A stretch of DNA of 64,000 nucleotides from an uncultured Fibrobacteraceae bacterium (GTDB lineage: Bacteria > Krumholzibacteriota > Krumholzibacteriia > LZORAL124-64-63), in contig CAZTWK010000002.1 of NCBI GenBank assembly GCA_964617805.1, positions 20,308 through 84,307 of the forward strand, in the 5' to 3' direction. The translations under genes and the position numbers were made by a program. Position 1 is the first letter of the stretch; each line of letters starts with the position of its first letter. Below, one piece after another: positions 425 to 7,021 of this stretch. The notes beneath the pieces were generated by a model. It was given only the letters and a program-made list of their open reading frames with translations, did not search any database and was not told the origin of the DNA.

Positions 425-781
425 TCAATTGAGATTGATCTGCACCATGGCGCCGGCCGGAGCCTCCAGCATGTGGGATGCCAGCGTCGATCCTTCCGGG
501 GCCACCAGAAGGATCGGCACGATGCCGTCCGTTTCGTCGGCGGGCGTCGCCGGCGTCGTGACGGTCTCGCCGTCGGCCAGACAGGCCACGTCCAGGCATT
601 GATCTTGCGTCCCGATCATGGCGAGTGTCTCTGTCCCGGCCGCCGCACCACCGGTGGGGGCCGCGGTGACGGACAGGGACGGAAGGACCGAAACCCGGGC
701 GTCGAACGAGAAATCGGCGCCCAGCACCGGCGTAGACGCCAGAACGGCACAGACGAGCAACGGGCAGGCGATGCGGATCAT
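425..781 (-). CDS. Small secreted protein, possibly a divergent pilin-like subunit
   Basis: ATG at 781 with GGAGG upstream; signal peptide MIRIACPLLVCAVLASTPVLG; ends VQINLN. Confidence 0.6.
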   Translation of the reverse strand: MIRIACPLLVCAVLASTPVLGADFSFDARVSVLPSLSVTAAPTGGAAAGTETLAMIGTQDQCLDVACLADGETVTTPATPADETDGIVPILLVAPEGSTLASHMLEAPAGAMVQINLN

Positions 782-1002
782 GAGGCGACCTCCCCCGGTG
801 GATGGCGTTCCGCTGCGTGGGCCGCAAGTCATAACATGATGCCAGTCTGGCGCATACGCGGGCAAAATGCACCCAAAAAACTGTAAAGCCGGGTGTCCGG
901 CGGTCGATGACTAGCACGAGCGAGGCATCCGGAGCAAGGCACACCAAACGTCTCGACAGTTTTTCCGGGTATGGAGACCACCGTTTCACAAGGAGTTGAA
1001 TC

Positions 1003-1500
1003 ATGCGGAAACACCTCATCCTGACCTTGGCGGCCCTGCTCGTCGCCACTCCCTTCACGCAGGTCGCGGCCCTGGATTCGCCCCAGGACGGCGTCGTCGA
1101 CGTGTTCATCGCGTTGGCCGTGGCCGAGACTGTCGAGATGGACTTCGGCGCCGTGATCGACGCCGACGGTACCGTGACCCTGGACACCAGCGACACCATC
1201 GCCGCTGATCCCAACGCCATCCACCAGGGCGGCACCGTGGCCAGCGGCCTGTACACCATCACCGGTCAGCCGAGCACGGCGGTGGACGTGGACATCACGC
1301 CCCAGAACGCCAACGGTCTGCTGCTGTCCAACTTCACCACCGACGTGGGCGGCGGCGTGTTCCCGCTCGTCGCGGCGATGATCGACGGCGTGGGCGACCT
1401 GGCCATGGCCCTCGGTGCGGACCTCGAGGTCCAGAGCGGCGTGGCCGCTCCCGGCGCCAACCAGCCCCTGGCCTTCACCATCACGGTGACCTACAACTAG
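1003..1500 (+). CDS. DUF4402-family secreted pilin-like protein
   Basis: AAGGAG RBS, signal peptide, MDFG motif, beta-rich, C-terminal FTITVTYN. Confidence 0.8.
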   Translation: MRKHLILTLAALLVATPFTQVAALDSPQDGVVDVFIALAVAETVEMDFGAVIDADGTVTLDTSDTIAADPNAIHQGGTVASGLYTITGQPSTAVDVDITPQNANGLLLSNFTTDVGGGVFPLVAAMIDGVGDLAMALGADLEVQSGVAAPGANQPLAFTITVTYN

Positions 1501-1518
1501 TCTCCACCCGGGACTGGT

Positions 1519-1548
1519 GGGGGGGCCTCCGGGCCTCCCCTTCTTCTT
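1519..1548 (+). terminator. Intrinsic terminator after the first pilin gene
   Basis: GGGGGGGCC-TCCG-GGCCTCCCC stem (one G:U pair) followed by TTCTTCTT. Confidence 0.7.
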
Positions 1549-1570
1549 GCCCGCCACCGGAAGCCGCATC

Positions 1571-1586
1571 TGGCACGCCCCTTGCC
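1571..1586 (+). promoter_or_regulatory. Sigma54 (-24/-12) promoter for the second pilin gene
   Basis: TGGCACG-CCCC-TTGCC, near-perfect match to TGGCACG-N4-TTGCW, ~45 nt before ATG 1630. Confidence 0.7.
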
Positions 1587-1629
1587 GAAACATCTGCGAG
1601 TCCAAACGGATAACCGGGGAGACCCGTAG

Positions 1630-2115
1630 ATGAATCTGCTTGCAGGACAAGTGGTTCGCCCATTTCGCGGGCGAGTCCTCTCGAGCGTGTTGCTCCTGGC
1701 GCTGCTACAGGCCATACCGGCCGGCGGCGCGGATCTGAGCATCTTCGAGACGGTCGAACTCGATTTCGGCTCCGTCGTCGACGGCGACGGGTCGGTCGTG
1801 CTCGGCCTGGCCGACGCCATCACGTCCGATCCGGCTGACATCCACGTGGCGGGTCCCGTCGCCACGGGCCGCTACACCATCACCGGCGATCCCTTCGCCG
1901 CCTTCAGCCTGTCCATCGCCGGCTTCACGGCCGCGGGGCTGAACATCGGCGACTTCGAGACCAGCGAGGGCACCCCGCCCCTGCTGAGCGTGGCCCTGGA
2001 CGGCTCCGGCGAACTGGATCTCAGCCTGGGCGCCACCCTGACCGTGGATTCCAACGTGGCCGCGCCGGGCCTGAACCAGCCCCTCATCTACATCATCACC
2101 ATCGACTACAACTAG
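1630..2115 (+). CDS. Second DUF4402-family pilin-like protein, paralog of 1003..1500
   Basis: Signal peptide; LDFGSVVDGDG vs MDFGAVIDADG, YTITG, NQPL, ends ITIDYN. Confidence 0.8.
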   Translation: MNLLAGQVVRPFRGRVLSSVLLLALLQAIPAGGADLSIFETVELDFGSVVDGDGSVVLGLADAITSDPADIHVAGPVATGRYTITGDPFAAFSLSIAGFTAAGLNIGDFETSEGTPPLLSVALDGSGELDLSLGATLTVDSNVAAPGLNQPLIYIITIDYN

Positions 2116-2147
2116 CGTCTTCCGTTGATCTTCCGCTTTCGCGCCGG

Positions 2148-2163
2148 TGGCATGGCCGTTGCG
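2148..2163 (+). promoter_or_regulatory. Sigma54 (-24/-12) promoter candidate for the chaperone-usher genes
   Basis: TGGCATG-GCCG-TTGCG with exact GG-N10-GC spacing, intergenic, ~80 nt before ATG 2244. Confidence 0.6.
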
Positions 2164-2243
2164 TTGCTGCCCTCCCGGATGTCCGCGCGGAGCCCGGATC
2201 CGCCGGAATCCCCGGCGATATTTGCCTGCAAGGAGGATGTCTT

Positions 2244-3113
2244 ATGGTTTGGTCGTGGTTGCGTCGCGCTTCCCTACTGGGACTATGGTCGGCAATCGTC
2301 CTGTGTGGCGGCGTTCTGGACACCCTGGCCAGCGGCCTGTCCATCGCGCCCATCCGGCTGGTCTTCGACGGCCGGTCGCGGGTGGCCACCGTCTATCTCA
2401 CCAACAAGAGCGACGAGGCGTCGACCTACCGCATCCTGGTGCGCGACAAGCGCATGCTCGAGAGCGGCCAGATCGTCGACGCGGAGGAGGCCTGGCCGGG
2501 CGAACGCTTCGCCAGCGAACTGCTGCGCTTCTCCCCCCGCCGCGTCGTGCTGGCGCCGGGCGAGAGCCAGACCGTGCGCGTCATGCTGCGCAATCCCAGC
2601 GAGGGACGCCTCGAGCACGGCGAGTACCGCACTCATCTGATCTTCCAGTCGGTGCCCAACGCGCCCACGCCCGAGGAGGCGGCGCGCCAGGACGGCCACA
2701 CCGTCGCCCAGGCCATCATCGAGACCAGCATCCCGGTGATCATCCGGCGTGACAACCCCGACGCCGCCGTCAGTTTCGCCGAGGCGGCCCTGGACACCGC
2801 CCGCACCCCCGACGGCCGTCCCCTGCTCGAGCTGGTGCTGGCCCGTGAGGGGGACCGCTCGGTCTACGGCGACATCACCGTGGACTGGATCGACGACAAC
2901 GGCCGCGGCCAGCCCGTGGCCAAGATCGTGGGCATCGCCGTCTACCATCCCACGCCGCGGCGTCAGATCAAGCTGCCGCTGGCGGTCTCCGACCCGAACG
3001 TCCTGAGCGAGGGGCGTCTGTACGTGCGCTTCGAGGAGAGCCCCCTGGGTCGGGGCGACCTGTGGACCGACACGACGGTGAACCTGGCCGCGGGGAGGAT
3101 CTTCGACCGATGA
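2244..3113 (+). CDS. Periplasmic fimbrial chaperone (PapD-like N-terminal domain)
   Basis: AAGGAGG RBS, signal peptide, LSIAPIRLVF, RFSPRRVVLAPGESQTVRV, GEYRTHLIF motifs. Confidence 0.8.
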   Translation: MVWSWLRRASLLGLWSAIVLCGGVLDTLASGLSIAPIRLVFDGRSRVATVYLTNKSDEASTYRILVRDKRMLESGQIVDAEEAWPGERFASELLRFSPRRVVLAPGESQTVRVMLRNPSEGRLEHGEYRTHLIFQSVPNAPTPEEAARQDGHTVAQAIIETSIPVIIRRDNPDAAVSFAEAALDTARTPDGRPLLELVLAREGDRSVYGDITVDWIDDNGRGQPVAKIVGIAVYHPTPRRQIKLPLAVSDPNVLSEGRLYVRFEESPLGRGDLWTDTTVNLAAGRIFDR

Positions 3114-5821
3114 AGCGCCTGCGGTACTGGACGGGATCCCCGGGCAACACGCTGTGGCTGGTGACGGCCCTGCTGTGCGGGTTGCTCTTCCTGGCCGGTG
3201 CCGCCGAAGCCCAGTCCCCCGCCGCGGCCGACCATCTCGGCGACGAGGACCTGGTGATCCTCGAGGTGCGCCTGGGCAACGAGGTCGTCAGCCCGGGCCT
3301 GATCGCCTTCCAGCATCCCGGCGGTGTCCTGATGCCCCTGGGCGCCCTGACCGACCTCCTGGAATTCGCCATCGACGTCCGGCCAGACCATGGCCGGGCC
3401 ACGGGGTGGTTCATCGACGAGTCGCGCCGCTTCGAGCTGGACCTGAACGCCGGCACGGTCGTCAGCGACGGCGTCACCGGGACCTGCGGCGCCGCCGACT
3501 CGGCCGCCGATATCGACGACATCTACGTGGACACCGTCCGCCTCGCGGAGTGGTTCCCCTTCGAGCTCGAGGTCTCGGTCATCCAGCTCCTGGCCAAGAT
3601 CTCGCCCAGCGAGACCCTGCCCCTGCAGAGCCGCCTCAAGCGCGAGGCCATCCGCTCACGCTCGCTGGAGAGCGAACTGCTCGCCGAACGCCTGCCCCTG
3701 CAGAAGGCCGACTACAGCATGTTCACCTGGCCGCTGGTGGACGCGAACCTGGAGTACCGGGGACGCGGGAACGACAGGGCCCCGCGCTTCTCCATCCAGA
3801 GCAGCGGCGACCTGGGCACCCTGGCCACCGACGTCTTCGTCACCCACACCGACGGCGCCAAGCTCATCAACGCCACGCGCCTGCGGGCCGGCCGCACCGA
3901 CGCCTACGGCGACCTGCTGGGGCCCCTGTGCGCCACGGAGTTCGCCTTCGGCGATCTCTACGCCCCCAGCACACCCCTGGTCCTGCGCGGCAAACTCGGC
4001 CGGGGTGTGATGCTCTCGAACCGTCCCCTGCGCCGCCCCGACCGCTTCGACAGTACCGAGATCAGCGGAGACGGACCACCCGGCTGGGAGGTCGAACTCT
4101 ACGGCAACAACGCCCTGTTGGACTTCGCCACCATCGACGAGACGGGCCGCTACCTCTTCACGGAGGTCCCCCTGGCCTTCGGCCGCAACGTCTTCCGCAC
4201 GGCGCTCTACGGCCCCCAGGGCCAGACGCGCGAGTTCACACGGGTGATGAACGTCGGCACCACCATGATCGCGCCCGGCAAGATCGAATACCGCCTGTTC
4301 GGGGTGCAGGACGAGCGATTCCTGATCACCGGCGACCAGCTCTTCGACGACACGCCCGACCGCGGTCGCTGGACCGGCCACCTCGAGGCGGGCTACGGCC
4401 TGGGCAAGCGCGTCTCCCTGCTCGGCGGCTACACGCGCCAACCCCTCGCGGGCGTGGACCGGGACTACCTGAGCCTCGTCGCCGACGGCAGCCTGAAGGG
4501 CTACCAGATGCAGGCCGTGGGCGTGCGCGCCCTCGCCGGCGGCAGCGCCGCCAGCTTCTCCATGCGGGGCGAGTTCCTGGGCCGCACCCTGACGGCCGAG
4601 CAGTTCATCTACAACGACTTCGTGAGCGACGCCAATCCCTTCGAGCAGCAGCGCACCTCGGAGACGCGGGTGCGCGTCGGGGGCAACACCCTCTGGAGCG
4701 GCCGCCACCTCGCCTACGACCTGCAGGTACAGACCACGGGCTTCATGGGCCGGGGCATCACCCGCCAGGATCGCGTGCAGCTGCGTGGGGCCACCCTCTG
4801 GCGCGGGTTGCAGGTGAGTTCCAAGCTGGACTTCCGCAACAGCAAGTCCGTCCTCGGCACCTACGACCAGCTCTTCGTGGACCAGCTGGCGCGCGGGGTC
4901 TGGGGACCGCTGATGCTGCGGGGCTCGGCCAGCGTGAGCATGAGACCGGAGACGGCCCTGAAGGCCGTCTCGGGCAGCGCCTACTGGAATCCGGTGGGAC
5001 GCATGCGGATGGGCGCCCACGCCACACACCGTTTCGACGACGCCGTGCCGACGACCGTCGGCGGCTCGCTCGGGTTGTTGATGGACACCTTCAGCGTGTC
5101 CGTGAGCGCCAGCGCCGCGGGCGACCAGTCGCCCTACTTGAGCGTCGCCATCTCCACCTCGATGACCAAGGTGCCCGAGACCATGCGCATGCACGTGCAG
5201 CGCCAGCGCATGTCGGCCGGCTACGGCGCCACCGCTCGCGTCTTCCTGGACCGCAACGCCAACGGCCACTGGGACGACCAGGACGACCCCCTGCCCGAGG
5301 TGCGCATCACCGGCGCCGGCGCCTGGAACGAGGGCGTCACCGGCGACAACGGCATCACCTATCTGGCCGGGCTGCCGGCCCACCGAGAGCGCGACCTGTC
5401 GGTGGACCTGGCCTCGCTGCAGGATCCCTTCCTGCTGCCCGCTCTGGAGGGTCTGCGGGCCACCGGTCACCCGGGTGGGCATGTGACACTGGAGTTCCCG
5501 GTCACCTTCTCCGGAGACATTGAGGGCACGGTCTACGCCCGCACGACGGCCGGCGACGTCCCCCTGCGCAACATCGGTCTGGAACTGGTGGATCTGAGCC
5601 AGCGCTCGATCCGCAAGACGGTGAGCGAGTTCGACGGATACTACCTGTTCCAGGAGATCCCGCCGGGCTGGTACGAGATCCACGTGATCCCGGAGACCCT
5701 GACGCGCAAAAACCTGCGCCTGCCGCCGCCGGTGGCCGCAGTCGTCCCGCCCGAGGGCGGCGTCTCCGACGGCAACGACTTCCTGCTGCGCTTCCAGGCG
5801 GGGCAGCGCGCGTCACGCTGA
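3110..5821 (+). CDS. Usher-like outer-membrane protein with C-terminal SdrD-B/carboxypeptidase-regulatory-like Ig domains
   Basis: ATGA overlap with the chaperone stop; signal peptide; ISGDGPPGWEVELYGNNALL plug-like motif; amphipathic beta-strands; VFLDRNANGHWD and SEFDGYYLFQEIPPGWYEI motifs. Confidence 0.75.
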   Translation: MKRLRYWTGSPGNTLWLVTALLCGLLFLAGAAEAQSPAAADHLGDEDLVILEVRLGNEVVSPGLIAFQHPGGVLMPLGALTDLLEFAIDVRPDHGRATGWFIDESRRFELDLNAGTVVSDGVTGTCGAADSAADIDDIYVDTVRLAEWFPFELEVSVIQLLAKISPSETLPLQSRLKREAIRSRSLESELLAERLPLQKADYSMFTWPLVDANLEYRGRGNDRAPRFSIQSSGDLGTLATDVFVTHTDGAKLINATRLRAGRTDAYGDLLGPLCATEFAFGDLYAPSTPLVLRGKLGRGVMLSNRPLRRPDRFDSTEISGDGPPGWEVELYGNNALLDFATIDETGRYLFTEVPLAFGRNVFRTALYGPQGQTREFTRVMNVGTTMIAPGKIEYRLFGVQDERFLITGDQLFDDTPDRGRWTGHLEAGYGLGKRVSLLGGYTRQPLAGVDRDYLSLVADGSLKGYQMQAVGVRALAGGSAASFSMRGEFLGRTLTAEQFIYNDFVSDANPFEQQRTSETRVRVGGNTLWSGRHLAYDLQVQTTGFMGRGITRQDRVQLRGATLWRGLQVSSKLDFRNSKSVLGTYDQLFVDQLARGVWGPLMLRGSASVSMRPETALKAVSGSAYWNPVGRMRMGAHATHRFDDAVPTTVGGSLGLLMDTFSVSVSASAAGDQSPYLSVAISTSMTKVPETMRMHVQRQRMSAGYGATARVFLDRNANGHWDDQDDPLPEVRITGAGAWNEGVTGDNGITYLAGLPAHRERDLSVDLASLQDPFLLPALEGLRATGHPGGHVTLEFPVTFSGDIEGTVYARTTAGDVPLRNIGLELVDLSQRSIRKTVSEFDGYYLFQEIPPGWYEIHVIPETLTRKNLRLPPPVAAVVPPEGGVSDGNDFLLRFQAGQRASR

Positions 5822-5860
5822 TCCCCCACGCACCGCGACGCGCCCTCATTAAGCAGAATA

Positions 5861-5905
5861 TTGACTTTGAATACTAATACAAACTATATTGGTATGTGTT
5901 ATGCA
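5861..5905 (+). promoter_or_regulatory. AT-rich promoter region of the cytochrome gene
   Basis: TTGACT-N18-TATATT (5861-5890) and TGGTATG-TGTT-ATGCA (GG-N10-GC, 5890-5905), with inverted repeats overlapping both. Confidence 0.5.
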
Positions 5906-5956
5906 CATTCACCCGGAACCGCTCGTCAATCACGCCAGACATCCAGGAGATCGAAG

Positions 5957-6334
5957 ATGACCACTTGCCAAGGCCTGCTCCGTCCCGTGCTGATCGTGGC
6001 GGCTCTGCTGATCGTCGCGTTCCCGGCGACGGGCTACGAGTTCTACAACGGCACCAACGCCTGCGTCCAGTGCCACGACGGCTTCGTGGGCGGCTTCGGC
6101 GCGGAACTCCACGACAGCCACAACGAGATCGCCCAGAATTGCGCGACCTGTCACGCATCCATCGGCGACAACCCTCTCATAGAGAACTGCGCGTCCTGCC
6201 ACTTCCCGGAGCCCCTGTGGAATCTCCACAACAGCGCGCCCGCGGACGGGAACGGACTGAAATGCAACGCCTGTCACACGTTCACCGCCAACGACATGCA
6301 CACCTGGGGCGAGACGAAGTCCTTCTTCCGCTAG
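5957..6334 (+). CDS. Secreted tetraheme c-type cytochrome
   Basis: AGGAG RBS, signal peptide, four CxxCH motifs (CVQCH, CATCH, CASCH, CNACH), C-terminal TWGETKSFFR. Confidence 0.85.
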   Translation: MTTCQGLLRPVLIVAALLIVAFPATGYEFYNGTNACVQCHDGFVGGFGAELHDSHNEIAQNCATCHASIGDNPLIENCASCHFPEPLWNLHNSAPADGNGLKCNACHTFTANDMHTWGETKSFFR

Positions 6335-6462: not shown

Positions 6463-6675
6463 TCACTTCAGCAGCGTCATTCTCCGACTCAGCTCCGTCC
6501 CGCCACCGGCGATCCGACACAGGTAGATCCCCGAGGAGAGCGGCTCGCCTCGATCCCCGCGGCCGTCCCAGACGAGATCGTGCTGCCCGGCCGGGAGCCG
6601 GGCCAGCATGAGTTGCCGGACACGACGCCCCCGCGAGTCAAAGATGTCGGCTCTCACCTCGCCGCTTCGCTCCAT
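6463..6675 (-). pseudogene. Truncated gene remnant: FlgD-like Ig / secretion C-terminal domain only
   Basis: GEVRADIFDSRGRRVRQL..LPAGQHDLVWDGRGDRGEPLSSGIYLCRI..RRMTLLK; in-frame TAA directly before the ATG, no signal peptide, no RBS seen. Confidence 0.65.
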
Positions 6676-6752: not shown

Positions 6753-6828
6753 TGGTGGAGCCAAGGGGGATCGAACCCCTGACCTCATGACTGCCAGTCA
6801 TGCGCTCTCCCAGCTGAGCTATGGCCCC
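6753..6828 (-). tRNA. tRNA-Ala(GGC)
   Basis: 76 nt GGGGCCATAGCTCAGCTGGGAGAGCG..CATGA-CTGGCAG-TCATG..GGTTCGATCCCCCTTGGCTCCACCA; encoded CCA. Confidence 0.97.
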
Positions 6829-6934: not shown

Positions 6935-7021
6935 GCCGGAGTGGTGGAATTGGTAGACGCGTCGGACTCAAAATCCGGTGGCCTTCGGGTCGTGTGGGTT
7001 CAAGTCCCACCTCCGGCACCA
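6935..7021 (+). tRNA. tRNA-Leu(CAA)
   Basis: 87 nt with long variable arm, anticodon arm TCGGA-CTCAAAA-TCCGG, GGTTCAAGTCCC T-arm, ends ACCA. Confidence 0.97.

Follow-up and report, generated by a model that had tools for sequence, protein, structure and literature searches.

A DUF4402-based operon of chaperone-usher type in an uncultured marine bacterium, probably a deeply divergent branch of the superfamily

What kind of structure is assembled by a four-gene locus that looks like a chaperone-usher system in its layout and unlike one in its family assignments? The locus lies at positions 1,003 to 5,821 of a 64,000-nucleotide stretch of contig CAZTWK010000002.1 (GenBank assembly GCA_964617805.1), a sequence from a marine metagenome; we refer to this whole stretch as the window. 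The genes encode two small secreted subunits of family DUF4402 (S1 and S2), a PapD-like periplasmic chaperone and an outer-membrane usher. We find that they are a real operon for a surface fibre of chaperone-usher type with DUF4402 subunits, the fibre itself being what we infer from the genes. Taken together, the evidence makes it quite probable that the locus is a fibre assembly system belonging to a branch of the chaperone-usher superfamily that has diverged deeply.

The four open reading frames (ORFs) are not chance products of the high G+C content of the region (68-71%), because all of them have many homologues and their order recurs among 80 loci that we fetched from other genomes. A scan in which each species was represented by a single genome gave at least 589 loci with a relative of the usher. 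In the fetched loci, the chaperone gene adjoins the usher gene, one to five DUF4402 genes stand alongside wherever the flank suffices, and the genes usually run from subunits through chaperone to usher. A Shine-Dalgarno-like sequence precedes each of the S1, S2 and chaperone genes of the window. The ATG of the usher gene (3110-3112) overlaps the TGA stop of the chaperone gene (3111-3113) as cgATGAag, with GGGGAGGA upstream. We take this ATG, and not the GTG at 3062, as the usher start because homologues of the usher are likewise 903 amino acids (aa) long and align from residue 1. S1 and S2 are 48% identical to each other, both end in Y-N, and neither contains a cysteine. NCBIfam holds no family for any of the four proteins. 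A sequence-only reading of this DNA had described two paralogous, cysteine-free secreted subunits ending in Y-N, a PapD-like chaperone, a usher-like barrel of ~900 aa and an ATGA coupling of the chaperone and usher genes. The subunit ORFs and the overlap at 3110-3113 bear out the first and last of these descriptions, and the two larger proteins have proved to be what that reading took them for, on the grounds given below.

The large protein has the beta-barrel fold of an usher and profile-level homology to ushers. In a model built with 36 diverse homologues (mean predicted local distance difference test score, pLDDT, 86), a signal peptide is followed by a beta-rich N-terminal domain (residues ~48-166), a helix (171-194), barrel strands from 209 to 687 and two C-terminal beta domains (~694-790 and 791-893). 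The barrel comprises ~24 strands, arranged as six long strands, a six-strand plug insert (~315-382) and eighteen long strands to ~687. When the model was searched against the Protein Data Bank (PDB) with Foldseek, the top 18 matches were all FimD or PapC (E from 2e-26 to 5e-14), several of them spanning upwards of 900 columns; the match that followed, at 1e-8, covered only the SdrD-like domain at the C-terminus. Small usher, chaperone and pilin profiles were also made from five Escherichia coli K-12 fimbrial operons, and only with these did the hhalign comparisons of usher and chaperone reach significance. Comparison of the usher family with the five E. coli ushers in hhalign gave a probability of 95.8% (E = 7e-9) over 479 columns, with ~14% identity over the aligned columns. 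The alignment pairs query 277-797 with FimD 260-791, that is, the last strands before the plug, the plug, the remaining barrel and the first C-terminal domain. PPGWEVELY, a motif invariant in the family, sits in the plug, and the motif TD..G.A.L..L..YR....D..TL.D pairs with a C-terminal motif of FimD.

Family models give a different picture of the same protein. At E<=1, the window usher has no match to PF00577 (Usher), PapC_N or PapC_C, and matches only SdrD_B and CarboxypepD_reg, both of which resemble its second C-terminal domain (Pfam, residues ~804-860). PF00577 is found below threshold in 4 of 36 usher relatives (best E 0.028), and the FimD control scores 761 bits with the same model. A PDB search with the usher sequence returned nothing, and the usher family profile returned only SdrD-type domains at the C-terminus. 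Homologues of the usher are usually labelled automatically as 'carboxypeptidase regulatory-like domain protein' or 'hypothetical'; those of the chaperone do carry names, either 'fimbria/pilus periplasmic chaperone' or 'PapD'. With no Pfam Usher match and no PDB sequence match, one might suppose that the large protein is an unrelated porin or transporter that has come to look like an usher by convergence of fold. We regard this as extremely improbable, and the fold search, the conservation of the locus and the profile-profile comparison effectively refute it. The profile match is not confined to the barrel: plug and first C-terminal domain are part of it. The only full-length fold matches are ushers, the next match being six orders of magnitude worse in E-value and the best barrel of another kind nine. 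Moreover, a gene for a PapD-like chaperone is linked to the usher gene wherever the fetched loci extend far enough, and in the window the two genes are translationally coupled.

The chaperone is PapD-like. Pfam PapD_N matches the protein above its cut-off (25.6 bits; cut-off 23), and hhalign aligns it with the five E. coli fimbrial chaperones at 92.6% probability (E = 4e-7) over 143 columns. Although the chaperone sequence alone found nothing in the PDB, its profile matched PapD and CupB2 and no other protein at E<=10. In classical systems, Arg8 and Lys112 of the chaperone hold the C-terminal carboxylate of the subunit. The invariant R38 of the DUF4402-linked chaperones (motif IAPTRIVF) pairs with Arg8 of PapD, and the invariant R168 pairs with the arginine in YYRP, a motif of classical chaperones; the Lys112 column pairs with an invariant proline, P164. 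Of the two classical residues, then, the alignment shows one (the Arg8 equivalent) kept and the other, Lys112, replaced. In archaic and alternative chaperones, neither classical anchor residue has an analogue, and a two-domain anchor serves instead (Pakharukova et al. 2015, PMC4654587).

Among the subunits, S2 matches DUF4402 in Pfam at 28.6 bits (cut-off 25.2), and S1 is borderline, with 25.0 bits for the precursor and 25.7 bits for the mature form. DUF4402 (PF14352) is matched by 113 of 115 aligned relatives, with a best E of 2e-33, and an exhaustive profile search gave 622 subunit cluster representatives at 50% identity. S1 consists of a signal peptide of ~23 aa, a 15-residue N-terminal extension (LDSPQDGVVDVFIAL) and a pilin-like domain with a C-terminal TVTYN. 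Of the 117 full-length subunit relatives, 88 have Tyr or Phe at the penultimate position, and 92 have a mature part free of cysteine; in the small E. coli family profile, by comparison, a pair of cysteines is nearly invariant. A model of S1 from 115 sequences (pLDDT 96.9) was searched against the PDB with Foldseek, and 42 of the best 43 matches were chaperone-usher pilins or archaeal donor-strand cannula subunits. The pilins among them include FimG, FimF, FimA, PapA, the pilin domain of PapG, CfaB and CsuA/B. In the profile alignment of the subunits with the E. coli pilins, the two C-terminal strands pair end to end. No match to Pfam Fimbrial (PF00419) was found in S1, S2 or the aligned relatives.

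The presence of CsuA/B among these matches raises the question of whether the locus is simply an archaic (sigma) system whose DUF4402 subunits represent a diverged spore-coat-protein-U (SCPU) domain. The archaic class is the most widespread of the chaperone-usher classes and is known outside the Proteobacteria (PMC4654587), and a chaperone that has not kept the classical Lys112 position would suit it. We nevertheless consider this reading unlikely. At E<=0.1, SCPU (PF05229) is matched by 0 of 115 family members, against the 113 that match DUF4402, and CsuA/B ranks under the classical pilins in the S1 fold search (E 0.046-0.11, with template-modelling (TM) scores of 0.25-0.29 versus 0.35-0.48). 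The chaperone points the same way: it keeps the equivalent of the classical Arg8, which archaic chaperones lack (PMC4654587), and the only PDB matches of its profile are the classical PapD and CupB2.

A divergent chaperone-usher system, which remains our preferred reading, would be expected to link its subunits by donor-strand exchange, and the N-termini of the DUF4402 proteins speak to this. In a column profile of 115 relatives, a small or hydrophobic residue occupies extension position 7 in 73% of sequences, position 9 in 97% and position 11 in 96%. A Pro/Ala/Gly break follows at extension position 14, and hydrophobic positions 15 and 17 fall in the first core strand. The mature part of S2 begins at that strand (DLSIFETVELDFG) and has no extension; a longer N-terminus is ruled out because a TAG stands just 5' of the S2 ATG. 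As read from the sequence listing, about three-quarters of the loci with at least two subunit genes have the same arrangement, in which the promoter-proximal subunit carries the extension and the chaperone-adjacent one does not (in Massilia, for example, the latter is QQITLSNARGLDFG). Under the established assembly scheme, an extension-less subunit accepts a strand and cannot donate one. Lacking the extension, S2 could enter only as the first subunit and so take the distal end, and our analysis suggests that it is probably the tip subunit of the fibre. The sequence-only reading had cast the second subunit as minor, which agrees with the missing extension of S2 and of most chaperone-proximal relatives. 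Further, three independent relatives from elsewhere (P0276, P0373 and P0381) are natural tandem proteins with two DUF4402 domains. Each is built from an extension-less domain, a linker of 10-14 residues after its last strand, an extension and a second domain, which is the domain layout of engineered donor-strand-complemented pilins. These features suggest that DUF4402 subunits may be joined by donor-strand exchange.

The locus might instead export DUF4402 proteins for a non-filamentous surface layer, a capsule or a coat, or as released monomers, and build no discrete pilus. Neither S1 nor S2 has an adhesin or lectin domain in Pfam, and chaperone-usher products resembling capsules or coats are known, namely Caf1 of Yersinia and protein U of the Myxococcus spore coat. 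However, Caf1 and protein U too are polymers linked by donor strands and arise by this same mechanism, and an ordered joining of subunits, head to tail, is what the conserved extension, the partner without one and the tandem fusions each indicate. Export without a fibre therefore appears to us distinctly unlikely.

The spaces between the genes carry signals that may bear on the ratio of the products. A hairpin with a 9-bp stem, 8 pairs of which are G-C (1519-1540), follows S1. A hairpin and T-run also follow S1 in loci L001-L005 and L048, where the loops differ, and in L005 a change at the stem base is compensated on both sides. In L007, a Krumholzibacteriota locus with an usher only 33% identical, a 13-bp hairpin and T-run stand at the same place. 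The folding energy of the 63 nucleotides (nt) after S1 is not unusual for the G+C content (z = -0.83), so that the case for a terminator rests on conservation and not on energy. Downstream of it, the candidate -24/-12 element before S2 (TGGCACGCCCCTTGC) is the sole exact TGGCAC-N5-TTGC in the window, and it is matched at the equivalent position in L001, L002, L003, L005, L048, L007 and L008. A second candidate element, before the chaperone gene, recurs at the equivalent place in L001-L005, L048, L007 and L008, that is, down to 33% usher identity. Both elements resemble sigma-54 promoters and may make transcription of the machinery genes dependent on sigma-54; no gene for a sigma-54 activator was found among the ten larger window ORFs examined. 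Short RNA contigs from four sediment or marine metatranscriptomes were placed on 942-1422 only, which covers the S1 leader and coding sequence. This placement is weak evidence, though fitting, for S1 as an abundant transcript, since contigs of low depth cannot show absence. The earlier proposal that the terminator follows a highly expressed major pilin is in keeping with the conserved hairpin, the compensating change in L005 and the restriction of RNA contigs to S1.

Several observations weigh against a chaperone-usher fibre and temper our confidence in it. The Foldseek scores of S1 are weak (best E 3.6e-3, TM 0.35-0.48), and hhalign of the subunit profile against the E. coli pilin profile reaches a probability of only 59% over 35 columns. 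Searches of the PDB by sequence alone tie neither the usher nor the subunits to solved pilus proteins: the S1 sequence returned only noise, as did the subunit profile. Single-sequence hhalign comparisons of S1, the chaperone and the usher with FimA, FimC and FimD place the proteins sensibly, with weak statistics. The monomer model of S1 positions the extension confidently, yet assigns no strand to it, and for this reason an open groove is neither shown nor excluded by the model. With an invariant Pro in place of Lys112, the chaperone may capture its subunits in another way than classical chaperones do. The RNA contigs are a biased sample, given that S1 is better conserved than the other genes and that the mapping also accepts sequences from relatives. 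Finally, a fibre has been seen for no member of the family.

With these points in mind, we propose the following course of assembly. S1 and S2 would be exported by Sec, and the PapD-like chaperone would capture each subunit in the periplasm, its G1 strand filling the subunit groove. The usher, with its 24-strand barrel, plug, N-terminal domain and two C-terminal domains, would recruit the chaperone-subunit complexes. S2 would enter first and come to lie at the distal tip, as a strand acceptor and not a donor. S1 would then polymerise, each copy inserting its N-terminal extension (hydrophobic at 7, 9 and 11) into the groove of the subunit added before it. The product would be a thin, disulfide-free surface fibre, most likely serving adhesion or biofilm formation in marine sediment. 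A separate S1 transcript ending at the conserved terminator, together with sigma-54-type elements before S2 and before the chaperone-usher pair, would keep the major subunit in large excess over the machinery. Both the formation of the fibre and its biological role are thus predictions from the genes.

Relatives of the locus are spread across many phyla. Among the matches listed, the nearest relatives are labelled Fibrobacteraceae/Fibrobacter, Krumholzibacteriota (Krumholzibacteria) and Latescibacteria; further labels are Myxococcota, Acidobacteriota (Thermoanaerobaculia, Holophagales), Desulfobacterales and Akkermansiaceae. The labels also take in many Alpha-, Beta- and Gammaproteobacteria, and Massilia, Halomonas, Marinobacter denitrificans, Pseudomonas tumuqii, Novilysobacter and Rhizobacter are cultured examples. 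The sequence-only reading had placed the fibre in a non-proteobacterial host resembling the FCB group. The labels of the nearest relatives fit such a host, but the operon is not a non-proteobacterial speciality, because it is common in Alpha-, Beta- and Gammaproteobacteria. The host has an outer membrane, as indicated by BamD/YfiO-like, TolB-like and heptosyltransferase genes in the window.

Gene content and arrangement vary among the fetched loci. An extra DUF4402 gene lies 3' of the usher gene in five loci (L007 11324-11872, L008 11207-11821, L011 4742-5302, L054 6519-7061 and L028 9289-9801). In L010, L014, L017 and L043, the chaperone gene and one subunit gene are on the opposite strand to the usher gene. 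The Krumholzibacteriota loci L012, L015, L016 and L078 have a subunit with an N-terminal region of 50-60 residues.

Features of the operon and its surroundings in the window, with strand and basis or location
Feature	Position	Strand	Basis or location
Divergent small ORF, probably ~118 aa from MIRIACPLL, signal-peptide-like N-terminus	425-865	-	5' of S1
S1, predicted major polymerising subunit (DUF4402, 165 aa)	1003-1500	+	ORF, Shine-Dalgarno AAGGAG
Terminator/attenuator hairpin GGGGGGGCC-TCCG-GGCCTCCCC and T-rich tail	1519-1550	+	3' of S1
Sigma-54-type -24/-12 element TGGCACGCCCCTTGC	1571-1585	+	45 nt 5' of S2 start
S2, predicted minor (tip) subunit (DUF4402, 161 aa)	1630-2115	+	ORF, Pfam
Sigma-54-type element TGGCATGGCCGTTGC, one mismatch to TGGCAC	2148-2162	+	~80 nt 5' of chaperone start
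Periplasmic PapD-like chaperone (289 aa)	2244-3113	+	PapD_N match, hhalign
Outer-membrane usher (903 aa from ATG)	3110-5821	+	Model, Foldseek, hhalign
AT-richer intergenic stretch, sigma-70-like promoter match 5861-5890, then cytochrome c gene	5822-6334	+	
70-aa ORF, solely FlgD Ig-like domain (43 bits)	6463-6675	-	Just before tRNA genes
tRNA-Ala(GGC)	6753-6828	-	~1 kb 3' of usher gene
tRNA-Leu(CAA), divergent from tRNA-Ala(GGC)	6935-7021	+	~1 kb 3' of usher gene

Two neighbours of the operon were considered as further parts of the system. The small divergent ORF upstream of S1 keeps its position and direction in L001-L005 and L048. It matches no Pfam or NCBIfam family, and only its N-terminus (ADFSFDARVSVLPSLSV) is weakly like the DUF4402 N-terminal extension (hhalign probability 6%); it is a possible accessory component. 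The cytochrome c gene downstream of the usher gene (5957-6334, with 5957 as the probable start) encodes four CXXCH motifs. We rejected it as a pilus component, given that it is kept beside the usher gene in one related locus only (L002).

If our reading is correct, it would assign a role to a domain that is widespread and has had no known one, with its 622 subunit cluster representatives and an usher in at least 589 species-level genomes. It would also extend to environmental phyla a paradigm that has been studied almost wholly in enteric pathogens. Note that pilus surveys based on PF00577 would miss DUF4402 loci, because their usher escapes the Pfam Usher model. Such systems would offer variations on donor-strand exchange, in the form of disulfide-free subunits, an altered chaperone anchor and an extension-less single-domain tip. 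As Massilia, Halomonas and Marinobacter are cultured carriers, experiments are practical.

How, then, does the locus compare with the chaperone-usher classes already known? With the classical systems (Fim, Pap), it has in common the logic of the operon: major subunit, hairpin, minor subunit, chaperone, usher. The parts of the usher are the same (N-terminal domain, 24-strand barrel, plug and two C-terminal domains), as are the N-terminal domain of the chaperone (PF00345) with its Arg8 equivalent, and the subunit design, with a penultimate aromatic residue in the C-terminal strand and an N-terminal extension of alternating hydrophobic residues. There are differences as well. Classical ushers are PF00577-positive, whereas the usher of the DUF4402 locus is PF00577-negative and ~14% identical to them; classical subunits are Fimbrial (PF00419) proteins with a disulfide, whereas those described here are cysteine-free DUF4402 proteins; and the classical Lys112 of the chaperone is replaced by Pro. 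In addition, the predicted tip subunit has a single domain and no lectin domain, and the last domain of the usher is SdrD_B / CarboxypepD_reg-like.

The alternative systems (Ecp; CS1/CFA-I) resemble the DUF4402 locus in the usher. EcpC of E. coli K-12 (L086 2811-5333, minus strand) is likewise PF00577-negative; it matches CooC_C, TcfC and, weakly, CarboxypepD_reg. The missing PF00577 match is therefore not unique to DUF4402-linked ushers. The CarboxypepD_reg-like signal of EcpC lies in the C-terminal domain, and hhalign of the usher family profile against EcpC pairs that region. In contrast, CooC_C and TcfC are absent from the window usher, with sub-threshold TcfC in 2 of 36 relatives, and the EcpC control has both. 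Comparisons with the single EcpC and EcpB sequences are weak (probabilities of 1% and 18%), and the subunit family differs.

With the archaic systems (sigma; Csu of Acinetobacter, CupE of Pseudomonas), the DUF4402 locus shares a spread beyond the Beta- and Gammaproteobacteria (PMC4654587). The thin fibre of small subunits that we predict would also be like theirs in architecture. Archaic subunits belong to SCPU, which none of the 115 DUF4402 family members matched, and the weaker fold match to CsuA/B and the retained Arg8-type residue also set the two apart. In its sequences, the locus lacks the family signatures of the classical, archaic and alternative classes alike.

A search of a literature library gave no paper naming DUF4402, PF14352 or IPR025514, and looking there more widely, for chaperone-usher systems of other phyla and for novel ushers, turned up nothing on this system. 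The fibre class appears to be unstudied, in line with the earlier suggestion that it was uncharacterised. DUF4402 systems may form a separate fourth lineage, or they may be a distant side branch of the archaic or the alternative class. We put forward the former only tentatively, as an idea that falls somewhat short of being our expectation: an ancient fourth major chaperone-usher lineage beside the classical, alternative and archaic ones, spread across Fibrobacterota/Krumholzibacteriota-like bacteria, Acidobacteriota, Myxococcota, Desulfobacterota, Verrucomicrobiota and Proteobacteria. Such a lineage would be marked by its own disulfide-free variant of the subunit fold, a hybrid anchor in which an Arg8-like residue is kept and Lys112 replaced, an extension-less single-domain tip, and machinery genes under the control of sigma-54.

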